Shown here: positions 1 to 48,100 of the stretch, piece after piece | Layout of the letters: every line of letters starts with the position of its first letter | Position numbering within the stretch: the stretch's first letter is position 1 | Virus record (IMG/VR): IMGVR_UViG_3300031133_000003 | Location: 1-48,100 of that record | DNA: 48,100 bases | Reading direction: 5' to 3' (one strand) | Source of the DNA: a virus | Position numbers and translations under genes: made by a program | The notes under the pieces: generated by a model | Told to the model about the DNA's origin: nothing | The model's input: only the letters and a program-made list of their open reading frames with translations | Database searches by the model: none

Positions 1-127
1 GTTCTCCATTTGTAAAGGGCGGGCTAGCTTAAAGCTGTCGGGGCAATGGCTCCAATGCCCACCTAACGGCATCCCTTCATTAAATTCCTTGAATTGTAAT
101 CCCATGTCTGTTATGGCAGCAATTCTG
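1..127. repeat. Exact 127-bp duplicate of 47974..48100 (circular-assembly overlap or terminal redundancy)
   Basis: Read directly: bases 1-127 (gttctccatttgtaaaggg...gcagcaattctg) are identical to the last 127 bases. The unit genome is therefore 47,973 bp. Confidence 0.95.
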
Positions 128-204
128 GCAGTACATCCAACAACCATTCCCAGGTGTTCGCCATAAATGCGCTCTACTAAGTCCCCAACTTTGAACTTAA
201 CCAA
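1..204 (-). CDS. ENK-tail mini-protein a (69 aa), cut by the window boundary
   Basis: TTG start at 204 with GGAGG 6 nt upstream, overlapping the stop of 197..775. Translation is MVKFKVGDLVERIYGE...ARPLQME; the last codons NK plus TAA lie across the junction (=47968..47973). Confidence 0.6.
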   Translation of the reverse strand, partial: MVKFKVGDLVERIYGEHLGMVVGCTARIAAITDMGLQFKEFNEGMPLGGHWSHCPDSFKLARPLQMEN

Positions 205-775
205 GTGCTACCTCCAAACTCTCTTTCAGATAAAAACGCTCTGGCAACAGCTTGACGCTTTCATCCAGAACGTATCCAACCACCTCACCTCGGAACACTA
301 AGCAAGCTTCTCTTTCATGAACACCAACAGCCCAATCACGATGAAAGGGGACAATGCGCGCCTCTTGATTCCTCACTTTCTGGAATGCCTCACCAACATC
401 AGGAAACTGACCAAGCATTGTCTTTCCAATCGCCTTGCTAGCGAAGTTTAAGCGTCCCATACGACGTGCTGGAGGCTCATCTAGGACATTCTTTAGTACC
501 AGGTTCTCATTGTTCAACCCCTGCTTATAACGCCGTACAGGCTTCCTCATAGCCATGTACACATCCTCTCCGTCAATGACATAGCCAAGAGGAGCGTGTG
601 AAGGGTCTAAGTCTAAATCAGCCACTAAAGCTTTGCTGTGCTTGTCAGTTTCTAAATCTGAAACAATCACAGTGTTCTTATCTTCCACCCCCACCACTAA
701 GCAAGGGCGTTGCTTATGAATCACCACAGTGTGGTAGAGGCGGGTTTTAACATCAGCTTCGCTCTCATAACGCAT
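197..775 (-). CDS. hypothetical protein (192 aa), embedded in the amide-ligase island
   Basis: Long ORF. Its ATG overlaps the stop of the upstream ENK gene (TAATG). No motif recognised. Confidence 0.7.
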   Translation of the reverse strand: MRYESEADVKTRLYHTVVIHKQRPCLVVGVEDKNTVIVSDLETDKHSKALVADLDLDPSHAPLGYVIDGEDVYMAMRKPVRRYKQGLNNENLVLKNVLDEPPARRMGRLNFASKAIGKTMLGQFPDVGEAFQKVRNQEARIVPFHRDWAVGVHEREACLVFRGEVVGYVLDESVKLLPERFYLKESLEVALG

Positions 776-1002
776 TATTTATTCTCCATTTGCTTAGGAC
801 GGCACACTGACAATGTACCCTCTTGGTAAGTGTTAGTTGCTCCGTTTTCCCAAGAAACTCTCACCCAGCCTTCCCTGTCATCTGGCTCATTTTCTATAAC
901 ATAACCCTTCACATTCGCTGGGTTGGTGCGCCCGTTCCAATACCTACGCAGCCCCTCTTCGTTGATATTAACTGCTGTACCGAGCCTTGGGGGCCAATTC
1001 AT
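775..1002 (-). CDS. ENK-tail mini-protein b (75 aa)
   Basis: ATGA overlap with the upstream ligase stop. Ends ..CRPKQMENK; its stop overlaps the next start. Confidence 0.65.
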   Translation of the reverse strand: MNWPPRLGTAVNINEEGLRRYWNGRTNPANVKGYVIENEPDDREGWVRVSWENGATNTYQEGTLSVCRPKQMENK

Positions 1003-1823
1003 ACAGCCACCCCCTTCGGAAGAATCAGGCCCTCAGCTTTAATGATGCGTGCTGCGGCTGCCTTGTCGCTCTTGTTGATGATGTTCTGAATGTCACCATA
1101 TTTATCAGCCAGGCAGATGCCCTTATCAATCTGCTCCATAGCATACATGGAAGCTTGATAGGCCCAACGTTTCAGGTTGTCATTGCCCAGCCATTGGTTA
1201 GATGGTGTGCGATATTCCATGCCATAGCGTTTAGGACGGAAGGCACCAGCTTTGCCGTACAGCTCACGACGCTTAGTGTCGTTGTCGTAGAACAGGGAAG
1301 GAAGGCCAATGTAGAAATCAATCTCACGCACCTTAGCTGCAATCCAGCCAATGTAGTCAATGTCATCTACAGGCGCTTCACCCCCAGCTTCTGGAATACC
1401 GAAGTGGATGTGACCAGCAGCACTACGGAAAGGAAGCTCTCCGTTAGGGCGTGGGTTAACAGCCACTGTGTAAGCATCCCAATCTGGCTCGCAGCCAAGC
1501 TCTTTAGCTTTCTCTGGCTGGGCGCGAATGTATTCCAGGCCGAATTCAGCCACAGGCTGTGGAAGAAGCTGATGCTGTGGCACCATTGCTGCAAGGATGG
1601 CTAACACGCCATTGATGTTCTTCATCCAATCCGCTTCGTTGCTTACGGCGTCAATGTTGAACTCAAGAGCCATACCATCCACCTGAACAGCCCCACCAGC
1701 TACCTTCTGTGGATTTTTCTTATCACCTTCAATCAAACCGAAGGCACTAACAGGCACGCCATTCTGTCCTACGAACACCTCTGGGTCTGCACCTAACAGA
1801 TATTTAGTTTTCATCGTGTACAC
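999..1823 (-). CDS. carboxylate-amine (COOH-NH2) ligase, phiEco32-like type 2 / GCS2-glutamine-synthetase-like fold
   Basis: Motifs LLGADPEVF, VQVDGMALEFN, GHIHFG and MEYRTPSN resemble the phage COOH-NH2 ligase family. AGGAG lies 8 nt before the ATG. Confidence 0.65.
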   Translation of the reverse strand: MYTMKTKYLLGADPEVFVGQNGVPVSAFGLIEGDKKNPQKVAGGAVQVDGMALEFNIDAVSNEADWMKNINGVLAILAAMVPQHQLLPQPVAEFGLEYIRAQPEKAKELGCEPDWDAYTVAVNPRPNGELPFRSAAGHIHFGIPEAGGEAPVDDIDYIGWIAAKVREIDFYIGLPSLFYDNDTKRRELYGKAGAFRPKRYGMEYRTPSNQWLGNDNLKRWAYQASMYAMEQIDKGICLADKYGDIQNIINKSDKAAAARIIKAEGLILPKGVAV

Positions 1824-1847
1824 TCCTACGTTTTAAATGATTGTTTA

Positions 1848-1858
1848 TGATAGCATTT
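1848..1858 (-). promoter_or_regulatory. copy 1 of recurrent 11-mer AAATGCTATCA (possible extended -10, TGcTATCAT; TTGTAA sits 16 nt upstream)
   Basis: Minus strand reads TTGTAAACAAATAGCAAAATGCTATCAT in the 38-nt gap before the ligase gene. Confidence 0.35.
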
Positions 1859-1860
1859 TG

Positions 1861-2094
1861 CTATTTGTTTACAAAAGATTTAGGCCCCAATACTTCAAAC
1901 CTATGCGCAAACATTCCATCAAGCCCTTCACACCAAACCAAGGTATCCTCCTCAACAACATCTGTGATATCAAAAGCCTTAACTTTATAACAGTTGCCAA
2001 TAAGAGGGGCATATTGCGAATGTCTGTTGGCTGCACTATCCACTACTCTTACACTGCATCCCTCTCGTATTTTAGTGTAACTTGGCTTTCCCAT
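1861..2094 (-). CDS. ENK-tail mini-protein c (77 aa; tail ..GPKSFVNK)
   Basis: ORF with GGAGAGG before the ATG. Ends AAC AAA TAG although no start codon is adjacent. Confidence 0.55.
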   Translation of the reverse strand: MGKPSYTKIREGCSVRVVDSAANRHSQYAPLIGNCYKVKAFDITDVVEEDTLVWCEGLDGMFAHRFEVLGPKSFVNK

Positions 2095-3277
2095 CGTCCT
2101 CTCCCAGACTAGCAGCTAACAACTTAATCTCTTCACTCAGCTTCTTACGTTCTTCCTCTTCAACAGCGTCAGCTCTCTCAGCCTCAGCAATATCTTCAAG
2201 AGAGAAATAAGTGTTGAGCACCGTATCAATTGTGCAGATGAATCCGCTATAGCTTGAATGTTTCAGCTTAGCAGAGAATACACAATGGTCAAGGTTCCAC
2301 ATCTCATCCAGCAATTGCTCATTAGCAAGGGAGTCAATGTTGTAAATGAACAACGGAGTGCCTTTCAATGTCTCGCAGGTGAGCCGTGCTTTCTGTGCCC
2401 CTGTGCTTGTCTCCACATAGTCGTGAACCCGAGTGACAATAAACTCCACTACGTCCCCTTCCTTCACTCCCTCCGCCTCTAACCAACGCTTGCCGTGATA
2501 ATCATCAATATCCGAAGAGGCGTTGTAGGAACGTTTTGGCGGCTCCCACTTTGGGGCAACGTATGCCACCACAGGGTTTCGCACAACACTAAGCTTATGC
2601 CCCCACTTCATCTTGACATCGAAGACATACTCCGTGTCTACAGCCACTTCTACAGGGTTTTTATCAAGCTCCACGCCCTCACGCCCACAGCCTACATGAA
2701 TCATCCAAGGCTCAGAGGCCCACACTAACGTCTCTCCTTTGTTAGCCGTAGCCCAGAACAGAGGACGTTCCTTATTACGCAGGAAATGGACAGTGTTGTC
2801 TCGCTTGTCCAGCCATGTCAGGGCAGCAGCCCCATTAAGCTTCTCCCACATAGCCTGTGTGTTGCTGTGGTTTAGCTCAGCGTACAATGCTTCGCTGTCC
2901 ACCTCACGCTTAAAGGAATCATGGAAGGCTTCTTTCCAGCCCCATTTAAGGGAGCCGTTATGAGCCCCAATGATGTTATCAAACTCAAATGGATGGGCGT
3001 TCTCAGCGTTGATTGCGCCCTGTGTAGCCCAGCGATTGTGACCAATCAGCACATAGCTCTTACGAGCCAGGGCCTGTGTAAACTCCTTCTTTTCTACAAA
3101 CTCTGCCCCACGGACAGCCTCTTTAACCACTTTAAATTCTGGTTTTTCATTGAAGCCTTGCATGAAGGCTACACCTGTTGAATGTTTGCCACGAAGCTCA
3201 TCTAAGAACAACATAGTCTTAAACGCTTTCTCTTCGTTAACCCCAATCTTTCCTGCAAAGCCCACCATTCCACACAA
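2072..3277 (-). CDS. class-II (Ntn, N-terminal Cys) glutamine amidotransferase-like protein with an unknown ~150-aa C-terminal extension
   Basis: TTG start, then CGMVGFAG (Cys2 nucleophile), plus HNRWATQG and NAHPF motifs. GGAGGTG lies upstream. Confidence 0.8.
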   Translation of the reverse strand: MCGMVGFAGKIGVNEEKAFKTMLFLDELRGKHSTGVAFMQGFNEKPEFKVVKEAVRGAEFVEKKEFTQALARKSYVLIGHNRWATQGAINAENAHPFEFDNIIGAHNGSLKWGWKEAFHDSFKREVDSEALYAELNHSNTQAMWEKLNGAAALTWLDKRDNTVHFLRNKERPLFWATANKGETLVWASEPWMIHVGCGREGVELDKNPVEVAVDTEYVFDVKMKWGHKLSVVRNPVVAYVAPKWEPPKRSYNASSDIDDYHGKRWLEAEGVKEGDVVEFIVTRVHDYVETSTGAQKARLTCETLKGTPLFIYNIDSLANEQLLDEMWNLDHCVFSAKLKHSSYSGFICTIDTVLNTYFSLEDIAEAERADAVEEEERKKLSEEIKLLAASLGEDDGKAKLH

Positions 3278-3278
3278 A

Positions 3279-3368
3279 TTACACCTCCAATAATTTATTT
3301 AAACGTTCAATTGCTTTCTCATGAAACTTAATCCACTCACGAATGAGAGGCTTGGTTGGTTCGGTCAC
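3279..3368 (-). CDS. micro-ORF (29 aa, MTEPTKPLIREWIKFHEKAIERLNKLLEV)
   Basis: GTG start with AAAGAGG 5 nt upstream. Its stop lies 1 nt upstream of the amidotransferase TTG start. It is below the ORF-track cutoff. Confidence 0.3.
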   Translation of the reverse strand: MTEPTKPLIREWIKFHEKAIERLNKLLEV

Positions 3369-3378
3369 AATGGCCTCT

Positions 3379-3594
3379 TTATTTATTTGTGAATGAGGTT
3401 TTAGATAAATGTCGGAAACATCTGGCATCTACATACTGTTTTCTTGTGCCGCCCTCAACCTGCAATCGGAATACTCCATCTCCTCTGTCCTCCAGAATAA
3501 GGCAGCGAGTCTTAATTGGATGGTAGTGCATAATAATTTCTCCACCACCTTCATTTGTGATTACAACTCTATCCCCTACCTTAAACTTGGCCAT
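3379..3594 (-). CDS. ENK-tail mini-protein d (71 aa; MAKFKVGD..., tail ..KTSFTNK)
   Basis: GGAGAG 8 nt before the ATG. N-terminus matches members a and j. Confidence 0.65.
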   Translation of the reverse strand: MAKFKVGDRVVITNEGGGEIIMHYHPIKTRCLILEDRGDGVFRLQVEGGTRKQYVDARCFRHLSKTSFTNK

Positions 3595-4228
3595 TCAATA
3601 AGCTCTCCAGTTTAGACAGATACCATTGTTGGCATGGATGTTCTTTACCAACCATCTCTGGATGAGGCTGGAAGCAGAAGCTGCGTGTCTCTGGATAGTA
3701 GACACTTTCCACTTCCACCTCATCATTCTTAGCCACCAACAAGCCACGCTTCTTGCCAATCTCTGACATATGAAGCTTGATGGTGCTACGCATCTCACTG
3801 CTCTGAGCTAACAGCTTCCCCTTCTTACCAATACGCATCATCTGGTGATGTGTAGAGGTGCAGGGGAATTCATTTCCTGTTTCTAAATCTACTACAGGGT
3901 GGGTGCCTGGAATGGCGTGGTTGTACACGTCCTGATACATCTTGCCACCATTCATCACATTCAGGAACTGACCGCCACGACAGATGCCAGCCATAAATTG
4001 ACCACGCTCTTTACAGGCGTTAAATACAGCCAGCTCTTCGGCATCTCGTGCCTTGCTGCTCCATGTTGTCTCATGCTGATGCTCTCCATACAGCTGAGGA
4101 GAGACATCAGAACCTCCCGTAAACTGAATGATGTCTGCCTTCTCAGCGCTATCTACCAGCTCATAACCCGCTGCCTGGAACATACGAGCGTAAGAAAAGC
4201 CACCACCTACAATATAAACCTTTTTCAT
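3581..4228 (-). CDS. class-I glutamine-amidotransferase-like / peptidase C26 (gamma-glutamyl hydrolase-like) protein
   Basis: GICRGGQ (nucleophile elbow), HHQ and FQPHPE (His-Glu) motifs. Its ATG overlaps the stop of ENK gene e (AAATGA). Confidence 0.8.
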   Translation of the reverse strand: MKKVYIVGGGFSYARMFQAAGYELVDSAEKADIIQFTGGSDVSPQLYGEHQHETTWSSKARDAEELAVFNACKERGQFMAGICRGGQFLNVMNGGKMYQDVYNHAIPGTHPVVDLETGNEFPCTSTHHQMMRIGKKGKLLAQSSEMRSTIKLHMSEIGKKRGLLVAKNDEVEVESVYYPETRSFCFQPHPEMVGKEHPCQQWYLSKLESLLNGQV

Positions 4229-4428
4229 TTGTTCACCATGTGTTTAAGTTTAGGGAGAGGTGAATATAGAGACATCTCTTCCTGATGGTCTTTACTAACA
4301 AACATAACTTGCTTGCTTTCAAACTGGAATACATAGGCGTTATCGTATGAACCCACACATCTAACCTTTGACTCCGGATGCTTGTAAGTACCCTTGCGTA
4401 AGTAGTAACTCCAAAGCTTGAACTTCAT
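4225..4428 (-). CDS. ENK-tail mini-protein e (67 aa from MKFKLW...; tail ..LKHMVNK)
   Basis: ATGA overlap with the stop of the 458-aa gene. The track ORF 4225..4449 starts further upstream. Confidence 0.6.
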   Translation of the reverse strand: MKFKLWSYYLRKGTYKHPESKVRCVGSYDNAYVFQFESKQVMFVSKDHQEEMSLYSPLPKLKHMVNK

Positions 4429-5801
4429 ACACCAGCCGCCTTCTGCCAATCTTCAATAATATCAGCAGCTTGTTCCATTGCATCATCAAATGAAACACCA
4501 GCTGCTCCCCATGCCTTCTTACCACCACCAATAGCGCCCAGCTTTTCAACTACAGGGGCCATGTCAGTGCATTCTCCCCACAGATTGTTGACGCCATAAT
4601 AGTCTGTCTTCTGGCTATACGGCTTATCATTCTGCTTAACTGGCTTGCCGTCAATGAAATTGATGATAGCTTTCTCTGGCATCTGGTCAATGCGGAACAC
4701 TGTGTGCCCTGTGCCAGCCTGAGCAAACTTCCATTTGCCATTGTTAAGAGAGGCACGGCAGCCAAACAGGAACGCTGTGTTAGCGTCCAGTCCCTGCTCC
4801 ATCAGGCCATACCACGCTGCAATCATGTGGGGGTATTCCCAACACTGACGTGTAGCAATGCAAGCACCAGCAACCATCTGTGCGCTGACGTTAGCTGTCA
4901 GGATGTAGCCATTAGCCCTAATCCACTCAGCATCCTTTACAACGAAGGCATCAGCAAATGGGCTGTATCCTGTCAGATAGTTGATGAACGCTGTGAGGAT
5001 TTCAGAAGTGAGCCCCTCTTTAGGGCGTGGTGCCTTAACAGCTGTCAGGATGTATGCTGCTTGCTTACCGCCTGTTCGCTGTAAGCCAGCATGACAGGCT
5101 GCGTGGTAGTCACGATATACAACCTTGCCCTTATCATCTGTCACGTTGTAGCAGGCTGTCTTGCCCTCACCACATTCAGCTTTCAGGAGAGTGAGCGCAT
5201 CAGACAACAAGGCAATTACCTGTTCATCCTCAGCGCTTGCACGCTTTGGGGGCAAGGCAATCTCCACAGCACCAACGCCCATACGCTGTGCTCGTGGAAT
5301 GCGCCATTCTGGAGGTTCAACGGGGTAGATGTCAGAGGCTAAGAAGATGTTAACGTAAGGAGCATCTTCTTCCGGGTCAATAGTATCTCCTTCATGACGC
5401 AGCGTAAGCTTGCCAGCGTGCTCCTCGACATCATCCTTTGTCAGCTCATACAGTTCATCCTCACGGAAGATGAAAGGTTTGCCTTCCCATCCCTCACGCT
5501 CCATGCGAGGAGAGAAGCCGGGGAATGCTGCCTTGTTAGCTGGTTTAGCACACACTTGCATGTCGCTACCTGATGGGTCATACACCCAGGCATTGTCTCG
5601 TGTGTCCAGCTGTAAGATGTTAGTGGTTGTTTGGGTGCCAAGCAGCTGCACTTTAATTGATGCGCCATTGCCAAAGCTTTCCACCAGCTTAACCAGCACA
5701 CCTTTGTTACCGTTTTTAGACAACAGCTTGTTCTTAGCTGAATACGCTACGTAGATTTTACCAATCTCCAGCGCTTTAACATTCAGTTTACGAAATTGCA
5801 T
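4425..5801 (-). CDS. hypothetical protein (458 aa), embedded in the amide-ligase island
   Basis: Long ORF whose ATG follows directly after the TAA of ENK gene f. No motif recognised. Confidence 0.75.
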   Translation of the reverse strand: MQFRKLNVKALEIGKIYVAYSAKNKLLSKNGNKGVLVKLVESFGNGASIKVQLLGTQTTTNILQLDTRDNAWVYDPSGSDMQVCAKPANKAAFPGFSPRMEREGWEGKPFIFREDELYELTKDDVEEHAGKLTLRHEGDTIDPEEDAPYVNIFLASDIYPVEPPEWRIPRAQRMGVGAVEIALPPKRASAEDEQVIALLSDALTLLKAECGEGKTACYNVTDDKGKVVYRDYHAACHAGLQRTGGKQAAYILTAVKAPRPKEGLTSEILTAFINYLTGYSPFADAFVVKDAEWIRANGYILTANVSAQMVAGACIATRQCWEYPHMIAAWYGLMEQGLDANTAFLFGCRASLNNGKWKFAQAGTGHTVFRIDQMPEKAIINFIDGKPVKQNDKPYSQKTDYYGVNNLWGECTDMAPVVEKLGAIGGGKKAWGAAGVSFDDAMEQAADIIEDWQKAAGV

Positions 5802-6005
5802 TTACTTGTTCTCCATTTGTAGTTTAATTTCTTTTACACGCCAAGAAAACATTGCCTCTACTTCCTCCAAAAAGAACAGAAGGTTTTCTTTGCCTTTTTC
5901 GGACTGTGACACAGTTAGCACCCGGCCTATGAACGGCGCATAAGCTGGGTTATATCTGTTCTTTTCACTATCCAGAACTTTAACCTTACTGCCAACTTTA
6001 ATCAT
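5802..6005 (-). CDS. ENK-tail mini-protein f (67 aa from MIKVGSKV...; tail ..IKLQMENK)
   Basis: GAGAGGG 8 nt before the internal ATG at 6005. The track ORF extends to 6056. Confidence 0.6.
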   Translation of the reverse strand: MIKVGSKVKVLDSEKNRYNPAYAPFIGRVLTVSQSEKGKENLLFFLEEVEAMFSWRVKEIKLQMENK

Positions 6006-8536: not shown

Positions 8537-8746
8537 TTATTTATTCTCCATCTGCTTGGGAATGGACTTAAACACATCATATCCATAGTATCTATTGTAC
8601 TGTGCTGGACTTAATCGAATGCATCCGTCATCGTCCAAAAGTTTTCCACGCAGGCTGACTGCGTAAACAGTTCCTTCTGTCCAGCCCTCACGTTGCATAT
8701 CTTCTGGCATAGCCACAAGTTTCCACTTAGTGTTTGACATCTTCAT
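8537..8746 (-). CDS. ENK-tail mini-protein g (about 69 aa from MKMSNTKWKL...; tail ..SIPKQMENK)
   Basis: The track ORF 8537..8803 overlaps the upstream gene. An internal ATG preceded by GAGG is the more plausible start, but the start is uncertain. Confidence 0.55.
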   Translation of the reverse strand: MKMSNTKWKLVAMPEDMQREGWTEGTVYAVSLRGKLLDDDGCIRLSPAQYNRYYGYDVFKSIPKQMENK

Positions 8747-8927
8747 CAGGCCTCGTAGTAGTGAGTACGGCAATGCAACGGTCAGCACAGGAGGCATAGG
8801 CAAAGCCTTGATAGGCTAGTGCCTCCATCTCTTCTACAGTGATGGTTGATAAGTCATACGCCAACATAATAGGGCGCATTGTTACAGCGTTGAGCATTTG
8901 ATGACGTTTACGCGTTGATGATAGCAT
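8727..8927 (-). CDS. hypothetical protein (66 aa)
   Basis: AGGAG 9 nt before the ATG. The ATG lies inside 11-mer copy 4. Confidence 0.5.
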   Translation of the reverse strand: MLSSTRKRHQMLNAVTMRPIMLAYDLSTITVEEMEALAYQGFAYASCADRCIAVLTTTRPDEDVKH

Positions 8928-8929
8928 TT
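8919..8929 (-). repeat. copy 4 of 11-mer AAATGCTATCA
   Basis: Read directly. Confidence 0.6.
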
Positions 8930-8931
8930 TG

Positions 8932-9197: not shown

Positions 9198-9348
9198 TTA
9201 AACACCCCATTGATTAGTGACACGACTTAATGAAAGGCTGTGCTGTACAACCTTTGGTTAAGCTGTGTAGCTAGACGCTACGAGATGAGCAGAGAATGAT
9301 GTAGAACACATCATGATGCCCACCATGTAGATGAGCATTAGGTGTATT

Positions 9349-9567: not shown

Positions 9568-9589
9568 GATGGCTTTCCTTCTGTGTTCG

Positions 9590-9784: not shown

Positions 9785-9995
9785 TCTAGTTCTCCTTAGA
9801 GTTATTAATCAAGCACCACATACTAAGTGATGCTCTGTTAATAATTCTATTTATCGTGACTATCTTCGTACCACAAGAGGCCGTCTTTCCGTCACCCAGC
9901 TACAGTTATCGTCTCACTGTCAGACTATCTCGATGTGCTAACTATTCTAGCTAGCTGGCCTTAGCGAGGCATCGGAACCTCTGGTGTATGTCGCC

Positions 9996-40388: not shown

Positions 40389-40595
40389 TTATTTTACAGC
40401 TGATTTGCTCACAGCAAACACTTGCTCAATACCTTCCGGCTGGAACAACACCATTGTCTCACTACCTGCTTCAATGATGCCAGCCACTTTCCCTACAGCC
40501 CCCTTCTCTAAATAAGAAGTGATGGGCTGGTCATGCTCATCCGTTGTTGGATATGCAATCTGACGCGTTAACACTACGTTCTGACCTGTTCTCAT
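40389..40595 (-). CDS. hypothetical protein (68 aa)
   Basis: Its ATG overlaps the stop of ENK gene h. Confidence 0.5.
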   Translation of the reverse strand: MRTGQNVVLTRQIAYPTTDEHDQPITSYLEKGAVGKVAGIIEAGSETMVLFQPEGIEQVFAVSKSAVK

Positions 40596-40822
40596 TTATT
40601 CTCCCATTGAATTGGTTTCTCTAATTTGTAGTCCATCAAAATGTGTTTAACATTAAGGATGGTGTTCACTCTCCATTCTCCAGAGCCAACAGCGCAGGTG
40701 ACAATCCCATGATTACCAACAACTCCAAAAGGAAGCACGTAGTCGTAATACACCTCCCCTCGATTCTTAGGAACGTATCTCTTACCAAGCTTTAGCTTAG
40801 ATAAGACATCCATCGCACACAT
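40592..40822 (-). CDS. ENK-tail mini-protein h (76 aa; tail ..EKPIQWENK)
   Basis: AGGAGG 5 nt before the ATG. Confidence 0.6.
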   Translation of the reverse strand: MCAMDVLSKLKLGKRYVPKNRGEVYYDYVLPFGVVGNHGIVTCAVGSGEWRVNTILNVKHILMDYKLEKPIQWENK

Positions 40823-41142: not shown

Positions 41143-43062
41143 TTAGTGGATTTCATACCAATTCTTTCCAATTGACGCGTCTCCTATCTGTGGAACTTTA
41201 AACGCGTAGTAATCACTAGCGTCAGCGTAAGCCTTAAGTACAATCTTAGCTACATCCTGAGCAATTTCTTCTCTGCATTCGGTTGTAAATTCATCGTGAT
41301 TGAAGTTTACAATCAAGAAATCATCACCCCATTTGTACCTCTCCGACAAGTATTGATGTGCCAGATTATACGCCTTCGACATAAAAATCGCTTCATCATT
41401 CTGTAAGGTGTAAACTAGAACAGCGTGCTCTGACTGTATGAAGTTCGGGGCACCGTCTATTGATGTCACCCATCCATCGTAGTATTCAAGCTTATTCCAC
41501 TTGTTCATTCTACGCTTAGCTCTCTTTCTCCATTCAGCAGTGAGTTCATCCATAACCCTAGCCTGGGCTGGGAACAACTCACGCAACGCCTCCCTAATCT
41601 CAGCACCAACCTCCTTATTTCCATGGACCATTCTACCTAGCTTTGGGTCCCCGGCTCCAAACTTCCAGCCAAAGCCAATGTTTTTCCCTGCACCGCGCTT
41701 AATCCGCTTTAGGCCATACTTATCACAAATCTTATTAACGCGATTCATAACAAGTGTGTGTGCATCCGTGCCCTGCTCCTTGTCTCCCTCCAAAAGGATG
41801 CGTGTAAGCTCTGGGTCGTTAGCTCTTGATGCGAGCATTCTGTCCTGGCAACCCGCTGCATCGCACCCGACTAGTGTATACCCCTCACGAGCAATGAAAC
41901 ACTTACGCATCATGGGACCCATAAATGCATCAGCATTAGGGACGTTAACAATCTGCTTGTGCTTCATCCTCCGGGTGTCTGCCAGACCCGATACGATGCT
42001 CGATAATCTTCCATCCTCCCTCACGTTAGCGAGATAACCGCGCATAATAGAAGCTCGGTCATTCACACGAGAACGAAGAACAATCAGATTACCAGCTACC
42101 CCCTCAACACCCTCAAAGGTAGTATCTTTGTTCAGCTTAGGTGATGTGTTCTCCCCAGCATCATTTGTATTCCAAGCATCTGGAATCCAGCCGTTATCTA
42201 GGAGGAATCTCTTAACCTCATCATCACTACCTAGCTTTATCTTCCTCACCTCAACCCGCGAGAAAGGAGCTGCTACAATGTGGCTGTCCTCTCCAAACAC
42301 CTTCAACACTGACTCAGAATAGATAGGTTTCTCAGGGGAGCTGCCCTTCATGAACACTTTTTTAACGTATTTGTAAGGGCCTCCACCCTTCTCTTTAGTT
42401 TCAGCTGGTTTGCAGATATAGGGAAGACTAGCCTCCAGCATCCGGTCTATTCGCCCCACCCAATGAGCAGCAAGATTAAGTGAGCGCTCGATGTGTTTAA
42501 CGTCTAAGCGCCAACCTGCATCCTCCTGCATTTGTAGATTCTCAAACAACTTGAAGGTCAGCATATGTGCATCCCTCCAATTGAGGCCCTTCCCTTCCTT
42601 CATCAGCTCATGGTACACAGCAACGTTAATGGCTGTATCTTCCGAACAACGATGAAGCATCTCCTCACTGAATGTCTCCCAATCTTCATGCTCAGGCTTA
42701 CCGCGCCCTACACGATATCCCCAGCAGCCTAAGCCATGTGGGCTCTTCATCGCCTTTGGGTCTCCCCTGGCTGTCAAAGGGGCCTGACGATTTGGACATT
42801 GCAAACGAGACATGAGGAGCGTGTCAACCTTCTTCCCTTTATACTCATATCCTAACACTTTCTTCACAGCTGGTAGGTCATAGCTGAGCACATTATGTCC
42901 AATTAACACATCACAGCTGTCCATGAACGCTACAGCTTCCTTCATCTGATGTGGGCGGAAAATATCAACTTGCTTGTCATCCAGGCTACGGAACACCATG
43001 CAGTGAATTGTGTCGGGTGTCAAGCCATTCGCCTCTATGTCGAACACCCTTACCTTTGTCAT
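41143..43062 (-). CDS. family-A DNA polymerase with 3'-5' exonuclease domain
   Basis: Exonuclease motifs VFDIEANGL and HNVLSYDLP. Polymerase motifs DAAGCQDRMLA, RGAGKNIGFGWKFG and NFNHDE. Confidence 0.92.
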   Translation of the reverse strand: MTKVRVFDIEANGLTPDTIHCMVFRSLDDKQVDIFRPHQMKEAVAFMDSCDVLIGHNVLSYDLPAVKKVLGYEYKGKKVDTLLMSRLQCPNRQAPLTARGDPKAMKSPHGLGCWGYRVGRGKPEHEDWETFSEEMLHRCSEDTAINVAVYHELMKEGKGLNWRDAHMLTFKLFENLQMQEDAGWRLDVKHIERSLNLAAHWVGRIDRMLEASLPYICKPAETKEKGGGPYKYVKKVFMKGSSPEKPIYSESVLKVFGEDSHIVAAPFSRVEVRKIKLGSDDEVKRFLLDNGWIPDAWNTNDAGENTSPKLNKDTTFEGVEGVAGNLIVLRSRVNDRASIMRGYLANVREDGRLSSIVSGLADTRRMKHKQIVNVPNADAFMGPMMRKCFIAREGYTLVGCDAAGCQDRMLASRANDPELTRILLEGDKEQGTDAHTLVMNRVNKICDKYGLKRIKRGAGKNIGFGWKFGAGDPKLGRMVHGNKEVGAEIREALRELFPAQARVMDELTAEWRKRAKRRMNKWNKLEYYDGWVTSIDGAPNFIQSEHAVLVYTLQNDEAIFMSKAYNLAHQYLSERYKWGDDFLIVNFNHDEFTTECREEIAQDVAKIVLKAYADASDYYAFKVPQIGDASIGKNWYEIH

Positions 43063-43280
43063 TTGTTCTCCAATTGAATAGGACGAACTTTCTCAACTAT
43101 AACCTGGTCATAGTGCTCTTTCAACATATCCAGGTACTCTTCGGATGACTGCCCTTCTCCCCAAGAGCCTTCATCAACGCACTCCTCTGAGTTGATGGAT
43201 AGCTCCTGCCATTCCTTATGGTTCAGATATACCACCCACCCAGCTTCTTTATGAGTTACTTTATGCGTCCATTTCGCCAT
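43059..43280 (-). CDS. ENK-tail mini-protein i (73 aa, acidic; tail ..VRPIQLENK)
   Basis: Overlaps the sigma gene end by 20 nt. Its stop overlaps the polymerase ATG. Confidence 0.6.
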   Translation of the reverse strand: MAKWTHKVTHKEAGWVVYLNHKEWQELSINSEECVDEGSWGEGQSSEEYLDMLKEHYDQVIVEKVRPIQLENK

Positions 43281-43749
43281 ACTTCTCTTTCACCTCTCTC
43301 CGAAATCGCATTACAGCCATCTTAATGGCTCCCTCTGACAGCCCTGTAATCTTAGATGTCTTCTCCACTTTCTCTCCACTAATCATGCTAAGATAGACAG
43401 CAGAGCGATGTGGCTCATCAAGCTTCTCCATTTCTTGCAACACTTCCCCAAGAACACCAGAGGCTCTCATTTCATCAGCAAGCTCCCCGCTCTCCCACAT
43501 CCACTCTTCCAGCTCCTCCCCTGATACATTATCTCGTAAGTATTCACGGATAACAGTGCCTAGCACATATTTGATGTAATAGTCCATCTCAAGGATGGGC
43601 TTCTTATTTCCAGCGTATTGAAGGCAACGTGTGTACGCCTCACTGACACAATCCTCATGCCAGAACTCCCCCACTTGACGTTTAGCCATAGCAAGGATGG
43701 GCTTACGTTGCTCCTCAAAGTGTTTAGTGATTAGTTCGACTGTGTTCAT
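43261..43749 (-). CDS. ECF-like sigma factor (regions 2 and 4 only)
   Basis: Region-4 HTH LDEPHRSAVYLSMISGEKVEKTSKITGLSEGAIKMAVMRFRREV. Region-2-like EDCVSEAYTRCL and YIKYVLGTVIREYLRD. Confidence 0.7.
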   Translation of the reverse strand: MNTVELITKHFEEQRKPILAMAKRQVGEFWHEDCVSEAYTRCLQYAGNKKPILEMDYYIKYVLGTVIREYLRDNVSGEELEEWMWESGELADEMRASGVLGEVLQEMEKLDEPHRSAVYLSMISGEKVEKTSKITGLSEGAIKMAVMRFRREVKEKYGEMDA

Positions 43750-43892
43750 TCTTCTTTCACCTGAATAGCTGAAACAAATTCCAACCCTTTGATGTCCGGA
43801 TTATTATATGCTTCTGATGAGGCAGCATCCCAGATGATATCTACGTCCCACTCGTCTTCGCACTCAACAACCATCACTAGTTTTATTTTCAT
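43746..43892 (-). CDS. micro-ORF (48 aa, very acidic: MKIKLVMVVECEDEWDVDIIWDAASSEAYNN...)
   Basis: ATGA overlaps with both the primase stop and the sigma start. Confidence 0.35.
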   Translation of the reverse strand: MKIKLVMVVECEDEWDVDIIWDAASSEAYNNPDIKGLEFVSAIQVKEE

Positions 43893-45547
43893 AATTCTAC
43901 AAATGCTCCGTTACGTTTATTCCAATACAGATTAGTGGGACCAACTTCACCAAACTCTCGGTCTTCTAAAAGAACAATCTGTCGGCAGTTTCGGTCATCT
44001 TCTGGTAAGTCAGGGTCTTTATTTCCCTCGATACCGAATAGATAGTTACAGCTACGGGCCATGGCGCGAGAACCAGCAAACTGACTGGACAGCACCTTAC
44101 CTCCACGCTCATGTGGAGTGCCACTCTCGGGGTTGCGCAAGTGACAGAAGATGAAGATGACAATATCTAAATCCAACGCCATAGCAGCCAGTTCCTGAGC
44201 AATTTCCTGGAGCTTGGTGTTAGCTGTTGCTGCGTCCATTCCGTTAGTGAGGTTTGTGATTGGGTCTATGAACACAGCTTTAACACCCTGTGCAGCAGCA
44301 GCCCTGATATCCGCTCTAAGAGTCTCCCAGCCTAAATGCTGGTAGAGGTTGAGCAGCACCACTTTCCCCCTCATAATCTCACAGGCTTTGTCATAAGCGG
44401 GTTCATCAAAAGCAATCTCCGGGTCATGAAAGATAGCCTCGGCGATTTTACCAGCCAACAGCTTCACTGTCTTGGCGTTTGCTTCCTCCGGCTTAGCCAT
44501 CATAATCTTCAAGCCGTGCTCTTTAATCAGATGAGCACCAATGGCATTAACCACCTCACTCTTCCCCATCTTCTGAGCAGCGCCAATATAGATTGTCTCA
44601 CCAAAGCGAATACCACGAGTCTTCTTCGTAGTTTCTTTCCAAGGCCAAGACAAACCATATTCAGCTGGCTTCTTAGCCTGTTCAAACAAATCCTCAGCAT
44701 AGACAAGACGTGTATTCTTCGGGATTGTTGCATTGAACAACACAGCGTTAACTAGCGCCTTAATGTGACCGTTGACAACACAATCATTCACGTCCTTCCC
44801 AGGAACTGTTGCTACTTTTGCTTCTGGAATGATGCGTAATACATCTTCCACAGCAGCTCTGCCAGCGTCATCTTGGTCAAACACCAGAACCACTTCCTTA
44901 AAGTGTTTCCGAAGCTCGGGGAGAATCTTGCCAATGTCACGGCTTGCCGATGCTGCGCCATGAGGAACTGATACCACCGCAGGAATGTTGTCTGCATATT
45001 GAGCACTCGCTTTATTCTTCTTCATTAGTTCAGCGAACAAGCTCATGGCATCAATCTCCCCCTCCGTAATGTAAACACGGGGACTCCCTGATGCTATTGC
45101 CTGTTGCCATCCGAAGGGATAGACATTCTTCACACTGCCTAATGAGAAGATGCGTTTACCTTCTACGATACGCACTTTATATCCACCTAGCTCGCCACTA
45201 CCAATCTCATGATATGGATAGTAATGAACCTCTACATCCTCCTGACGTTCCTGGTCTAAGGAGACATGGCAATTGAAATAGCGCATGGTTCCTAAGCCAA
45301 TCTTACGGTCATCTAAGCCCTTAACAGGGTATTGACCAATCTCATCAAGCTCCTTCTTGATTTCTTCTGGAGACTTTACTGTGCGTTCAATGCCAGCCTT
45401 CTCCATTGTGTTACCGCCCAACGGATTTGGTTCATAGCCCTTACAGCTAAAACAAAACCCTGTCACTCGTCCATCTGGTTCTTCATATAAGTTTAAGCCG
45501 TGGCGGGAGCCACAGGCGTGACCAGTTCTTCCCACGAGGATTCCCAT
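43889..45547 (-). CDS. bifunctional primase-helicase (T7 gp4-like)
   Basis: Zn-finger Cys/His cluster, TOPRIM EGEIDAMS and FDQDDAG, and DnaB-type Walker A GAAQKMGKSE. Confidence 0.9.
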   Translation of the reverse strand: MGILVGRTGHACGSRHGLNLYEEPDGRVTGFCFSCKGYEPNPLGGNTMEKAGIERTVKSPEEIKKELDEIGQYPVKGLDDRKIGLGTMRYFNCHVSLDQERQEDVEVHYYPYHEIGSGELGGYKVRIVEGKRIFSLGSVKNVYPFGWQQAIASGSPRVYITEGEIDAMSLFAELMKKNKASAQYADNIPAVVSVPHGAASASRDIGKILPELRKHFKEVVLVFDQDDAGRAAVEDVLRIIPEAKVATVPGKDVNDCVVNGHIKALVNAVLFNATIPKNTRLVYAEDLFEQAKKPAEYGLSWPWKETTKKTRGIRFGETIYIGAAQKMGKSEVVNAIGAHLIKEHGLKIMMAKPEEANAKTVKLLAGKIAEAIFHDPEIAFDEPAYDKACEIMRGKVVLLNLYQHLGWETLRADIRAAAAQGVKAVFIDPITNLTNGMDAATANTKLQEIAQELAAMALDLDIVIFIFCHLRNPESGTPHERGGKVLSSQFAGSRAMARSCNYLFGIEGNKDPDLPEDDRNCRQIVLLEDREFGEVGPTNLYWNKRNGAFVEL

Positions 45548-45557
45548 CTACTCTCCT

Positions 45558-45788
45558 TTATTTGTTAATAAAAAGACGCGGTGAGATAAGTGTCAGGGCC
45601 TTAGCCGAAATCACATCTCCTTTACCGATGTATCTGTCGCTTTCTTTGTGTGAGACTACCACAACCCTGACTTTCTGTTGTTCCTCGAAAACAGCCTCTA
45701 CCCGCATAATTGCAGCTGAGGTTGTGTATCCATAAACTCCATCAGCATACGCATTCCCGGTTGCCTTATCTCCAACCTTAAATTTCAT
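45558..45788 (-). CDS. ENK-tail mini-protein j (76 aa; MKFKVGD..., tail ..SPRLFINK)
   Basis: ATGA overlap with the ATP-grasp stop. Its own stop is followed by a separate AGGAG for the primase. Confidence 0.6.
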   Translation of the reverse strand: MKFKVGDKATGNAYADGVYGYTTSAAIMRVEAVFEEQQKVRVVVVSHKESDRYIGKGDVISAKALTLISPRLFINK

Positions 45789-46546
45789 AGCATCTCCTTA
45801 AATCGTTTAGCATAGCCATCTAGCGTAGTGCCTGACAAACCTGGGGCTGTGTTTACCTCCAACACTACATACAAATCATCCTTCTTATTCCAGACGATGT
45901 CTACAGCACCGAAGTCTAAACCAAGAGCTTCTACAGCTATGATAGCATTCTTGCTTGCCACTTCATTCTCTTCAACACCTTCACGAGCAAAGATGAATCC
46001 ACCGTCAAGATTGCGTATCTGCCAATTCACCTCTTCCTTTGGAACGTCAAGCTTACGCGCCTTACGCTGAATGTCCACCACCTTACCCATAAAGACATGG
46101 TAACGATATTCTTCCTGCTTCTTCACATAGGCAGTATACAGCGGAGCATCCACCAAATCATCTGCACTGTCAGCCATAACGATGCCGACACCACTATGCC
46201 CGTTAAGAACAGTGCGACACACAACGCTACGAGAATCATCTTCCTGGAGATACGCACTAGCTTGTTCCTTGCTTGTGAAGAATGGGGGAATAGAGACATT
46301 CGCTTGTTGGAAAAGTTCAAAAGATTTTAATTTATTTGAAGCGTTACGGATGTTCTCTGGTTTGTTGAGGATGTGACATGCTGCCACTTGGTCAGGAAGA
46401 GCAGCACTTCCCCAGTTGATTACACGCTTTAATTGGCTGCCTCTAAACTTGCTGTTGCCATGCTTAATGCGTTTAACTTCTAATGCCTGGGACAGAGACT
46501 TCGCCCCTTCACTGAATGGGTTATGTGAATAGATGTATGTCTTCAT
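45785..46546 (-). CDS. ATP-grasp ligase (RimK-like)
   Basis: VVCRTVLNGHSGVGIV, EEYRYHVF, and LGLDFGAVDIVWN..LYVVLEVNTAPGL. Likely start is MKTYIY at 46546, overlapping the stop of ENK gene k. Confidence 0.8.
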   Translation of the reverse strand: MKTYIYSHNPFSEGAKSLSQALEVKRIKHGNSKFRGSQLKRVINWGSAALPDQVAACHILNKPENIRNASNKLKSFELFQQANVSIPPFFTSKEQASAYLQEDDSRSVVCRTVLNGHSGVGIVMADSADDLVDAPLYTAYVKKQEEYRYHVFMGKVVDIQRKARKLDVPKEEVNWQIRNLDGGFIFAREGVEENEVASKNAIIAVEALGLDFGAVDIVWNKKDDLYVVLEVNTAPGLSGTTLDGYAKRFKEML

Positions 46547-46737
46547 TTGTTTTCCATTTGAGTGAATATTTTCTTTAGGTTGTGTGCCCAAGTACACCAT
46601 CTTCCGTCTCCAAATGAAGGCAAGATGCTTTGAACCGTACAGGTAGCATCTCCCGGCTCATGCCTGTAGATATAAACCTTCTCTCCGGCCTTTAGGTATT
46701 TTCCCTCATTAGCTATTACAACATGCGTAGCTTTCAT
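46543..46737 (-). CDS. ENK-tail mini-protein k (64 aa; tail ..IFTQMENK)
   Basis: ATGA overlaps at both ends. Confidence 0.6.
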   Translation of the reverse strand: MKATHVVIANEGKYLKAGEKVYIYRHEPGDATCTVQSILPSFGDGRWCTWAHNLKKIFTQMENK

Positions 46738-46964
46738 TTGTTCTCCCAATTAAGAATCACCTTACTAACATCCCGCTCAACATTGTGAGACCAGACATCA
46801 AACACTCGTCCAGGTGCTAGCCGGTTGAGCCCCTCACAGAAATTCTTTACAACAACAAACTTAGCACTATCTCCATTCCGGCTAACGAGCTTAGCATGAA
46901 CGAACAGATTATCATGCCGTCTATGCATCCTCACCTTATACAAGGTTTTCTTATTCAGCTTCAT
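46734..46964 (-). CDS. ENK-tail mini-protein l (76 aa; tail ..VILNWENK)
   Basis: ATGA overlaps at both ends. Confidence 0.6.
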   Translation of the reverse strand: MKLNKKTLYKVRMHRRHDNLFVHAKLVSRNGDSAKFVVVKNFCEGLNRLAPGRVFDVWSHNVERDVSKVILNWENK

Positions 46965-47161
46965 TTGTTCACCATGTACTTGGGCTTGACAGATTTCATC
47001 ACCCACTGTAGACGCTCTAGTTGCTCTTTTGTATAGTCTCCAAACCACCCTCCAAAAGAGCCATCCGCATAAGCAGCTCTCACCTTACGGCTGCGCTCGT
47101 TCCATTCAATATTATGGCTTAAAACCGTTTCAATAGTTCCAATGTGTGTCGCTTTATCCAT
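46961..47161 (-). CDS. ENK-tail mini-protein m (66 aa; tail ..VKPKYMVNK)
   Basis: TAATG overlap with the amidoligase stop. GGGAG 7 nt upstream. Confidence 0.6.
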   Translation of the reverse strand: MDKATHIGTIETVLSHNIEWNERSRKVRAAYADGSFGGWFGDYTKEQLERLQWVMKSVKPKYMVNK

Positions 47162-47967
47162 TACCAATCTCCCATATACGCGTATTGTTGAACACGACGA
47201 ACACTGTCACGAATAGCATCATCAAATGCTGCTGTCCATTCAATGTCCTTAGCAAATGGCCCTAACACCTTAGTGAAGAAGCCATAGCTGCCCATCATAG
47301 AAGAATCAGAGACAATCTGTGCTGGGTTATCAATCTCACGAGCCAGATGTTTGAGGTGTTGCAAAAGACGGCACCACCAAGCTACAGCCTCTAAATCCCC
47401 ATCAGCACGCCATGCACGGAATTCAACGGAGCCATAGTCACCCAATGCCTTAACATTGATTGAAGCGTAACGCAGGTCATCTGTGTGCAAGATGCGCAGG
47501 TCTTGCTGCTTAACGCTCTCCATCAACATCTCAATCAGGTATTCAGCATCTGAGGCGCGGAGACAGAACAGGTTGCCAATGCGATGTTCCCCGCATTTGT
47601 TAACCAGAATTTCCTCAACCACCAGATAAAGACTGATGTAGTTGAACAGCTGTGTCACTGTCAGGTCAGAACAGTTGATATGAACGTGCACACCAGCGTT
47701 AGGGCTGTTCTTAATCTTACTACCTTGTGTCTCCCAGGCTGCTTTCAGCTCTGCCAGAGCAGCGTTCTCAGCGCCAAAGGGAATGGGTTTACGGAGGACA
47801 TATTCATATGATTCACCACGCAGGGAGCCATCAGCTTCGCTCTTCCAAACCTTTGTGTCTACATATGGGAGGTTGGCTCCCTCTGTTTCAATCTCAATGC
47901 CCTGATGGTCTGTGTATTGTCCATCAATGCGCAGGAGAGATTTCACTGTCTTTTTTTCGTATTTCAC
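47161..47967 (-). CDS. Amidoligase_2-type carboxylate-amine ligase
   Basis: GIEIETEG, NAGVHVHIN and YGSVEFRAW motifs (glutamine-synthetase/GCS2-like ligase pattern). GTG start directly after the TAA of ENK gene a. Confidence 0.7.
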   Translation of the reverse strand: MKYEKKTVKSLLRIDGQYTDHQGIEIETEGANLPYVDTKVWKSEADGSLRGESYEYVLRKPIPFGAENAALAELKAAWETQGSKIKNSPNAGVHVHINCSDLTVTQLFNYISLYLVVEEILVNKCGEHRIGNLFCLRASDAEYLIEMLMESVKQQDLRILHTDDLRYASINVKALGDYGSVEFRAWRADGDLEAVAWWCRLLQHLKHLAREIDNPAQIVSDSSMMGSYGFFTKVLGPFAKDIEWTAAFDDAIRDSVRRVQQYAYMGDW

Positions 47968-48100
47968 TTATTTGTTCTCCATTTGTAAAGGGCGGGCTAG
48001 CTTAAAGCTGTCGGGGCAATGGCTCCAATGCCCACCTAACGGCATCCCTTCATTAAATTCCTTGAATTGTAATCCCATGTCTGTTATGGCAGCAATTCTG
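47968..48100 (-). CDS. 3' part of ENK-tail mini-protein a (the same gene as 1..204, seen in the duplicated end)
   Basis: ..SFKLARPLQMENK then TAA at 47968-47970. Confidence 0.6.
   Translation of the reverse strand, partial: RIAAITDMGLQFKEFNEGMPLGGHWSHCPDSFKLARPLQMENK
47974..48100. repeat. Exact 127-bp duplicate of 1..127
   Basis: Read directly. Confidence 0.95.

Follow-up and report, generated by a model that had tools for sequence, protein, structure and literature searches.

Small proteins with a shared C-terminal tag in and around a phage amidoligase module, and p458 as a candidate reader of the tag

The segment 45558-48100 of the virus record IMGVR_UViG_3300031133_000003 (IMG/VR; the 48,100 nucleotides analysed are referred to as the window) encodes on its minus strand two predicted ligases, one RimK-like ATP-grasp enzyme and one member of the Amidoligase_2 family, interspersed with small proteins (mini-proteins) that all end in the dipeptide NK, and lies directly upstream of a primase/helicase gene (Table 1). 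The ligases are part of a seven-gene enzyme module, while the mini-proteins belong to a family that is spread over the genome and shares a short C-terminal tag, which, as its codon usage shows, is selected as protein. The explanation that we consider the best overall, and that in our estimate may equally well prove right or wrong, is an ancient module colonised by tagged mini-proteins, with the module protein p458 as the candidate reader of the tag.

The genes of the segment follow one another in the order a -TAAGTG- Amidoligase_2 -TAATG- m -ATGA- l -ATGA- k -ATGA- ATP-grasp -ATGA- j, and the TAA of mini-protein j is separated from the primase gene by a 10-nt gap (AGGAGAGTAG) with an AGGAG of its own, i.e. 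this junction is not translationally coupled; this order, the overlaps and the gap had been read in an initial annotation of the same DNA and were confirmed in the sequence. Mini-protein j retains the terminal N-K in a tail with no in-frame Shine-Dalgarno sequence. Positions 1..127 are identical to 47974..48100, and since these 127 nt are the sole terminal match, the window forms a circle of 47,973 bp. The segment is therefore contiguous, both physically and translationally, with 1..6005 and with the replication genes, as the repeat had suggested to the initial annotation. Gene a crosses the assembly junction, hence a reading of the linear window shows just 36 of its codons; the full gene has 69 codons (MVKFKVGD...PLQMENK), from a TTG at circular position 203 to the stop at 47968..47970, and this likely start overlaps the TAA stop of p192 (CTTGGTTAAG). 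The genome is that of a podophage (Zobellviridae/Citrovirus), whose nearest named relatives, Klebsiella phage Klyazma and Citrobacter phage CVT22, show 72-78% nucleotide identity to it in the ATP-grasp gene only. The early and middle genes are on the minus strand (~34.8 kb to the junction, then 1 to ~11 kb) and the late genes on the plus strand.

The ATP-grasp protein contains the motifs GHSGVGIV, EYRYHVF and DFGAVDIV...LEVNTAPGL. The profile analysis identified its relationship to the Pfam RimK family (PF08443, E-value 2e-7, score: 31.1 bits, cut-off: 21, profile positions 1-172 of 188) and to PHROG 2599 (E-value 2e-88). The best solved relative is Escherichia coli RimK (5zct/4iwx, E-value 1e-4), in which GTQGIGVV aligns with GHSGVGIV, so that the Gly-rich GxGV loop is kept, and VDIL...MEVNASPGL aligns with VDIV...LEVNTAPGL, so that the D...E-x-N metal/ATP motif is kept as well. 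Matches to the NCBIfam models of MptN, the RimK family and CofF were all under the curated cut-offs (TIGR00768, RimK family alpha-L-glutamate ligase, 46.7 vs 143.4 bits; the equivalog PRK10446, 28.4 vs 331 bits), and by these scores the enzyme is classified as a distant relative of the RimK family, not a member of it. The Amidoligase_2 protein exhibits the motifs GIEIETEG, GVHVHIN and SVEFRAW and matches Pfam PF12224 (E-value 1e-11, score: 45.4 bits, cut-off: 22) and PHROG 7469 (E-value 3e-85), while a PDB sequence search retrieved no solved relative. Its homologues were found in 267 phage records, including those of Pseudomonas, Escherichia, Vibrio and Aeromonas phages, and in the window it shares the minus-strand gene string with two thiol peptidases similar to glutamine amidotransferases (GATases), namely GATase II (2072-3277) and C26/GATase I (3581-4228). 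The motifs by which both ligases had initially been called are thus present and both Pfam scores exceed their cut-offs; the two enzymes are predicted from sequence to be genuine representatives of peptide-bond-forming families.

The module has the order p458 - GATase I - GATase II - COOH-NH2 ligase - p192 - Amidoligase_2 - ATP-grasp - primase, i.e. it combines three ATP-dependent carboxylate-amine ligase families with two Cys amidohydrolase/amidotransferase-like proteins (GATase I and II) and with p192 and p458, neither of which shows a recognisable enzymatic fold, and the genes for a sigma factor and PolA follow the primase downstream. Pfam PF14395 and PF12224, to which two of the ligases belong, reportedly stem from Iyer, Abhiman, Burroughs & Aravind 2009 (Mol Biosyst 5:1636). 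Among the loci gathered around primase homologues the same module order recurs in 42, a version of the module lies upstream of the primase in phiEco32 and Salmonella phage 7-11, and in Pseudomonas phages K4 and PSA11 the module genes are nearly contiguous. We found no shared tails in the ~30 more distant module loci, nor in phiEco32 or 7-11, and since these carry the full ligase set, the module and its ligases need no tagged mini-proteins. In phiEco32 and 7-11 a gamma-glutamyl cyclotransferase takes the place of the C26/GATase I of Zobellviridae; with a PuuD-like hydrolase, a RimK/MptN-like ligase and this cyclotransferase as the nearest named families, the chemistry of the module would be nearest to the formation and hydrolysis of alpha/gamma-glutamyl amides.

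The mini-proteins were identified as 13 small open reading frames (ORFs) that end in -NK; every one of them is on the minus strand, and among the 142 small ORFs of the genome the next commonest terminal dipeptide occurs three times. All 13 tails conform to the pattern hydrophobic-x-N-K. Ten of them are encoded in the enzyme island, which makes up 34% of the minus-strand block (binomial p = 0.002); the remaining three lie outside, tagged mini-proteins being found in the replication module too, and the family is therefore genome-wide and not confined to the segment. In Klyazma 12 proteins end in LENK (one of them in LGNK), some of which are encoded in the interval from the sigma factor to PolA and others near an exonuclease, and ~20 proteins of CVT22 end in LENE. 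The tails of other relatives are xENE, LENE, QLEND, LENV, LENT and [DE]EENE, and those of the closest relatives of the window phage [MF]-x-N-K, so that the tag of the clade can be written as L-E-N-X, where X is K, E, D or V (T once) and is the same in virtually all copies of one genome. About a quarter of the early/middle genes carry this one short tag.

The bodies to which the tag is attached are diverse. BLASTP searches with the tails trimmed off divided them into many small families and singletons; the bodies of this clade fall into two classes or more (KFKVGD and PEWATH), and at least seven families of homologous bodies mix ENK and ENE members, the split following the phage and not the family. 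An exhaustive profile search identified the commonest body as a widespread MIB_HERC2/SH3-like repeat, most of whose single-domain homologues from other phages carry no tag; Pfam and PHROGs offered no function for the mini-proteins, only one weak MIB_HERC2 match and PHROGs of unknown function. Members of the second class start with an (A)PEWATH-like motif, reduced to MKATH in k and MDKATH in m, and are also encoded in the relatives L002 (12718-12945 and 13178-13405) and L003 (5417-5929). The 170-residue gp22 of phage K4, encoded inside the module, begins with ...APEGATHW, which indicates that the PEWATH-type domain is older than the tag.

The interval between Amidoligase_2 and ATP-grasp holds three mini-proteins in the window, three unrelated ones in CVT22, two in the relative L005 and only an HNH endonuclease in Klyazma, and BLASTP detected no orthologues of k, l and m. 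This zone is a variable cassette with moron-like turnover. The initial view that the mini-proteins are not stray morons accordingly stands in part: the turnover of the interval and the lack of detected orthologues of k, l and m speak against it, whereas the enrichment in the island, the selected common tag and the tie to p458 described below speak for it. Given that enrichment and that tag, the mini-proteins are not random passengers, and it is plausible that the tag directs them to a protein of the module. Genes for HNH homing endonucleases were observed at module junctions of Klyazma (L001, 9577-10050 and 14317-14751), L098 (16444-16959), L102 (6886-7401) and L101 (13391-13723), and in Klyazma, L098 and L102 one such gene lies between Amidoligase_2 and ATP-grasp; insertions in several relatives mark the module junctions as permissive insertion sites.

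The typical tail DNA (TTG GAG AAY AAA TRA TG) and the stretch TTGGAGAAYAAATRATG place GGAG 5-9 nt upstream of the next start, hence the obvious rival explanation was that the tail is a by-product of a translational-coupling cassette, or of a DNA joint homogenised by recombination, with no role as protein. Indeed, GAG and TTG/CTG/ATG codons dominate the coupled tails, an in-frame Shine-Dalgarno sequence is present in 47 of 55 coupled and 3 of 13 uncoupled tails (p = 3e-5), and E at position -3 falls from 89% in coupled to 54% in uncoupled tails, as the sole relaxed position (the relaxed uncoupled tails of the window are FINK, FVNK and FTNK). However, none of the 102 tails lacks Asn at -2, for which both AAT and AAC are used, and the last residue follows the lineage (K in 59 of 59 tails, written AAA and AAG; E in 42 of 43, written GAA and GAG; GAT/GAC and GTA/GTT in D and V tails), while Leu of the tail is written TTG, CTG, TTA, CTA or CTT. 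All of the tails (100%) retain N and the last residue, the 13 uncoupled ones with recoded L-E among them: LENK/LENE is preserved at the end of uncoupled mini-proteins, with L-E spelled TTA/CTA GAA, and the gene that follows is served by a separate Shine-Dalgarno sequence. The enzyme genes place theirs in other frames and in other sequences. The synonymous variation within genomes at every tail codon excludes homogenisation at the DNA level as well as a reader of the RNA sequence, and these data largely refute the by-product explanation already; we regard it as very improbable. The codons show that the tag is selected as protein, independently of the nucleotide constraint, that the codons of L-E are chosen to double as the Shine-Dalgarno sequence of the next gene where one follows, and that the last residue is fixed per genome, and the ENK tails that had initially been taken as a protein feature are in this respect real. 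The uniformity of the residues despite synonymous drift points to a single reader in each genome, able to tell C-terminal side chains apart. As phages of Klebsiella, Citrobacter and Erwinia differ in the last residue, a phage-encoded reader would be likelier than a reader of the host.

The two ligases were the first candidates for acting on the tails, since the initial annotation had linked them to the ENK proteins as a coupled system. The ATP-grasp and/or Amidoligase_2 enzyme could act directly on the tails, by C-terminal addition of amino acids as in RimK/TTL, by using a tail carboxylate as a carrier handle as in LysW/LysX, or by conjugating the mini-proteins to targets as in Pup/PafA. The nearest relatives of the ATP-grasp enzyme, RimK, MptN and CofF, are extenders of C-terminal or gamma-linked glutamate, the C-terminal tails usually hold Glu and in many of the relatives end in Glu or Asp, the combination of GS-like (glutamine synthetase-like) ligases and amidohydrolases recalls PafA/Dop, and mini-proteins are enriched in or around the module here, in CVT22 and in the locus L078. 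Moreover, if p458 docks the mini-proteins, the ligases would be the obvious nearby enzymes. Against a direct action speak the ~30 tail-less loci, phiEco32 and 7-11, which have the full ligase set in the same order and at the same time weaken the proposed coupling between ligases and ENK proteins, and the scores far under the curated cut-offs for RimK, LysX and MvdC. In addition, the end of the tail varies among K, E, D and V with no matching change in either ligase: across 15 lineages, 1-2 columns of the ATP-grasp protein and two of Amidoligase_2 separate the lineages, but those of the former do not clearly complement the tail residue and those of the latter are not uniform, so the specific link of these enzymes to the tail was not borne out. 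Column 64 of ATP-grasp (E in K-tail lineages) had been a candidate, but on re-screening with more lineages it failed the criterion of K-lineage specificity (consensus absent from all other lineages). We consider a direct action of the ligases unlikely, and the reader of the tag is probably another protein of the module.

The best candidate is p458. Its model (predicted local distance difference test, pLDDT, 84) comprises N-terminal tandem Tudor/SH3-like barrels (residues ~1-165) and a C-terminal domain with invariant C236-H237, R318, E322 and H366. The N-terminal domain is present in 15 of the 15 LEN-X loci that cover the p458 region and in none of the 22 loci with the C-terminal domain only (including K4 and L078); the isolated phages that possess it are only Klyazma, Asterion, VR7901, CVT22 and Erwinia phage Pecta. 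Pecta was found through this domain and was predicted to be tagged, and 14 of its proteins end in LEND. All K-tail lineages, the window phage (D142) among them, have D at residue 142, which lies in the motif LRHEGDTI-x-P; the E-tail lineages L015, c66, L100 and L102 have K there, and D- and V-tail lineages have N. Within p458 column 142 is the only one that is uniform in K-tail lineages, uniform in E-tail lineages and yet different between them, and across the nine module and replication proteins compared it is the only one with its own chemically complementary residue for each tail flavour. L100 and L102 were chosen for K142 and predicted to have E tails; both have SLENE. A first charge-reversal screen, with eight lineages, had been uninformative.

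Several observations weigh against p458 as the reader. Foldseek searches of the PDB recognised no fold in its C-terminal domain. A K-lineage-specific consensus is shown by 23 of the 2,657 columns in the nine proteins (for instance column 202 of the COOH-NH2 ligase, M vs F, and column 377 of the primase, E/D vs K, partly charge-reversed), which suggests that the K lineages may share local ancestry. In the CVT22 group 7 residues are deleted at the hairpin of residue 142, and L101, whose tails are EENE, has Ile at this position. The trees of the p458 domains conflict with a tree of eight proteins, and the N-terminal domain and the LEN-X tag are confined to one clade, so that together they may represent a single evolutionary event. 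In the eight-protein tree ENE and ENK phages are mixed in a clade with 100% support to which the window phage does not belong. This tree speaks against a single K/E switch with the ENK lineages as one clade, and the p458 domain trees and the K-specific columns speak for it; K- and E-tag phages are interleaved on the eight-protein tree (bootstraps 94/100/79), and yet many columns in several proteins are shared by all K-tag phages, which suggests mosaic exchange of the early/middle region. The assignment is thus correlational, and the N-terminal domain of p458 is the best candidate and not an established reader.

The locus L078 of a distant relative (IMGVR_UViG_3300021440_000021, 234-1408 and 7568-9995) also belongs among the points against p458. 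Around its module lie 12 small proteins with a common tail of another kind, the 8 residues [IV]-T-S-L-E-[ED]-Y-[ML], on two unrelated bodies (KFKVGD and helical, ~100 residues), with the Ser written both TCN and AGY, and as its p458 homologue has no N-terminal barrel domain, the reader of this tail, if any, is something else. The same locus argues for the alternative that the tag is a signal unrelated to the module, such as a degron or a stabilising cap that sets the lifetime of early proteins, or a docking site for a host hub or a phage protein from outside the island; so do the tagged mini-proteins in the replication module and elsewhere, and the presence of one tag on unrelated body folds. 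A reader of the host is, on the other hand, hard to square with the switching among K, E, D and V in phages of closely related enterobacteria, and both the covariation with p458 and the enrichment in the island would have to be coincidence. In our view a signal of this kind is improbable.

Table 1. Features of the window in and around the enzyme island, with the tagged mini-proteins encoded elsewhere in the genome.
Feature	Position	Strand	Remarks
Primase/helicase	43889..45547	-	Pfam Toprim_2 + DnaB_C; synteny in 80 loci
Mini-protein j, 76 residues, MKFKVGD..., tail RLFINK	45558..45788	-	last gene before primase
RimK-like ATP-grasp ligase, 253 residues	45785..46546	-	closest to alpha-L-glutamate ligases
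Mini-protein k, 64 residues, tail TQMENK	46543..46737	-	corrected start
Mini-protein l, 76 residues, tail LNWENK	46734..46964	-	corrected start
Mini-protein m, 67 residues, tail KYMVNK, '(W)ATH' N-terminal class	46961..47164	-	corrected start; no BLASTP orthologue
Amidoligase_2 enzyme (glutamine-synthetase/GCS-like carboxylate-amine ligase), 268 residues	47161..47967	-	
Mini-protein a, 3' part, tail PLQMENK	47968..48100	-	translated across junction
Mini-protein a, 5' part (left copy of terminal repeat + unique sequence)	1..203	-	
p192, no enzymatic fold	197..775	-	model pLDDT 91; PHROG 11055
Mini-protein, 75 residues, MIB_HERC2/SH3-like body, tail PKQMENK	775..1002	-	
COOH-NH2 ligase type 2 (phiEco32-like)	999..1823	-	Pfam PF14395 E 3e-8; PHROG 3815 E 7e-79
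Mini-protein, 77 residues, tail KSFVNK; uncoupled to next gene	1861..2094	-	
Class-II (Ntn) glutamine amidotransferase-like (GATase II)	2072..3277	-	Pfam GATase_6/7/4
Mini-protein, 71 residues, MAKFKVGD..., tail TSFTNK; uncoupled to next gene	3379..3594	-	
Class-I GATase/Peptidase_C26 (gamma-glutamyl amide hydrolase-like; GATase I)	3581..4228	-	Pfam PF07722 E 9e-19
Mini-protein, 67 residues, MKFKLW..., tail KHMVNK	4225..4428	-	
p458	4425..5801	-	model pLDDT 84; N-terminal ~165 residues + C-terminal ~270 residues
Mini-protein, 67 residues, MIKVGSKV..., tail KLQMENK	5802..6005	-	first island gene
Tagged mini-protein outside island, tail PKQMENK	8537..8803	-	
Tagged mini-protein outside island, tail PIQWENK	40592..40822	-	
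Tagged mini-protein outside island, sigma factor/PolA interval, tail PIQLENK	43059..43280	-	

GATase II matches the NCBIfam models of the GlmS/PurF N-terminal domain below the cut-off, and no family was matched by its C-terminal ~200 residues. Its apparent start is a TTG followed directly by Cys (MCGMVGFAG), which is the Ntn nucleophile. The Klyazma orthologue is annotated from a later GTG, with which the catalytic Cys would be lost, and the orthologues in L008, L009 and L090 retain a (TTG)-CGLVG start. GATase I exhibits the GICRG nucleophile motif and an HPE motif, with a PuuD-like NCBIfam match below the cut-off. The PDB sequence search revealed no match for p192 or p458. The p192 model consists of two SH3/KOW-like barrels and a C-terminal helix (FYLKESLEvaLG), and Foldseek found only weak matches to it in the PDB and no enzymatic fold; for the models of p458 and p192 the matches were Tudor/SH3/eIF5A-like (E-values of at least 0.02). 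Several domains of the module are thus small barrels, broadly similar in type to the mini-proteins. The C-terminal helix of p192, F-Y-L-K-E-S-L-E-x-x-L, includes the S-L-E core of the tags of relatives, and its L-E codons again bear the Shine-Dalgarno sequence of the next gene; coincidence and an ancestral source of the tag are both possible.

Elsewhere in the window, a 49-codon ORF (3279-3428, minus strand) overlaps the 3' end of the mini-protein gene 3379-3594 in another frame, and its C-terminal half (PLIREWIKFHEKAIERLNKLL) resembles an ORF of L006 (6121-6354) located between GATase I and the next mini-protein; it is probably a real small gene with no tag. The mini-protein 3379..3594 is identical to P0006 of a public 48,114-nt metagenomic contig, on which two proteins of the window phage find exact matches. 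Upstream of the island two minus-strand ORFs (7235-7537 and 7696-8070) resemble genes of HNH-type nucleases (e.g. HLCDNPRCIEPTHL). No Rfam families or tRNA genes were found in the window, and 43000-48100 shows no excess of sigma-70-type promoters or terminators. At 43261-43749 (minus strand) the phage encodes a small sigma-like protein (Sigma70_r4_2). The promoter consensus of phiEco32 gp36, TAATGTATA, is not enriched, with 11 matches vs 10.9 expected in the whole window, and the promoter specificity of the window phage is therefore presumably different.

The module as such has been described before. In PMC10580990 its gene neighbourhood is credited to Iyer et al. 2009, its function is given as predicted only, and it is cited as a predicted cell-wall modification that blocks superinfection. 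A literature search found no experimental work on the module, the papers on Klyazma and TC6 contain no word on its function, and PADLOC gave zero matches for its proteins. The middle expression suggested in the initial annotation is in agreement, by analogy, with phiEco32, where gp79, encoded beside the ATP-grasp gene of that phage, is a middle gene (PMC8948821).

The window shares with the phiEco32-type amidoligase neighbourhood the COOH-NH2 ligase type 2, Amidoligase_2, class-II GATase and RimK-like ATP-grasp proteins, p192-like and p458C-like proteins, and the position upstream of the primase/helicase, but it differs from it in having a tagged mini-protein at every junction and in the extra N-terminal barrel domain of p458. 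RimK, the closest relative of the ATP-grasp enzyme, adds poly-alpha-glutamate to the C-terminus of a protein (ribosomal protein S6), and the tails considered here are likewise C-terminal and acidic in many lineages; unlike in RimK/S6, those of the window end in Lys, and the ATP-grasp enzyme occurs in many tail-less phages. In LysW/LysX and Pup/PafA/Dop a small protein with a conserved C-terminal acidic handle is served by a ligase, of the ATP-grasp type in LysX and GS-like in PafA, and by an amidohydrolase (Dop), and a small C-terminally tagged protein, a ligase and an amidohydrolase are combined here as well. We nevertheless rejected a LysW/LysX carrier system (LysX model, 19.5 vs 275.6 bits; tails of the form hydrophobic-x-N-K, no EDWGE) and a Pup/PafA/Dop system (no GGQ/GGE motif, no PafA/Dop match in Pfam or NCBIfam), with only a GS/GCS-like resemblance at the superfamily level left for the latter; unlike LysW and Pup, the mini-proteins have folded SH3-like bodies and amount to 13-20 different proteins per genome, not one. 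A graspetide system was rejected too (MvdC, 35 vs 425 bits; MvdD, 19 vs 475 bits; the mini-proteins are folded, 60-90 residues long, and have no core repeats of the Thr/Ser/Lys-Asp/Glu type). A further likeness may be that to F-box/SOCS-box adaptors, which dock on a common enzyme scaffold and in which a common docking element sits on variable binding domains and co-varies with one partner, the C-terminal tail of SSB being the reverse case of a common docking element; unlike in the F-box/SOCS-box proteins, the element here is a 4-5-residue C-terminal peptide in a phage, and docking is putative.

According to the combination of ancient module, colonising mini-proteins and candidate reader that we prefer, the segment makes up the downstream end of a phage module of seven genes that is ancient and lies directly upstream of the primase. 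The junctions of this module, together with those of the replication genes, have been colonised in an enterobacterial Citrovirus-like clade by fast-turnover, mostly SH3-like proteins of 60-90 residues. A phage protein that evolves together with the tag would read it as a peptide for docking or recognition, the best candidate being the N-terminal tandem beta-barrel domain of p458, and p458 may bring the mini-proteins to the module, as substrates or as interchangeable adaptors; a role as regulators is conceivable too. We attach rather little probability to a more specific version, a modular protein-modification machine in which 13-20 interchangeable SH3-like mini-proteins dock on p458 via the genome-specific L-E-N-X and act as adaptors or as conjugated tags. 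As adaptors they would aim the three ligases and two amidohydrolases at different targets of the host, and as conjugated tags they would be activated at the tail and joined to targets as in Pup/ubiquitin; the invariant Asn would then be the handle for the chemistry, which a GATase-like hydrolase might for instance deamidate before ligation, and the last residue of the tag a specificity or cap residue.

Taken as a whole, the initial interpretation of the segment is partly supported; the ligase module was already described, and what is new is the family of mini-proteins and the add-on of a tag and its candidate reader. The amidoligase module is widespread, and its function has been only predicted since its description in 2009. 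The tag, together with a single candidate reader residue in a module protein, offers a handle on what the module may act on. If the tag is a docking code, phages would have a new means of arranging numerous small host-takeover proteins about a single enzyme complex, and the code would offer a ready-made orthogonal pair of tag and reader.

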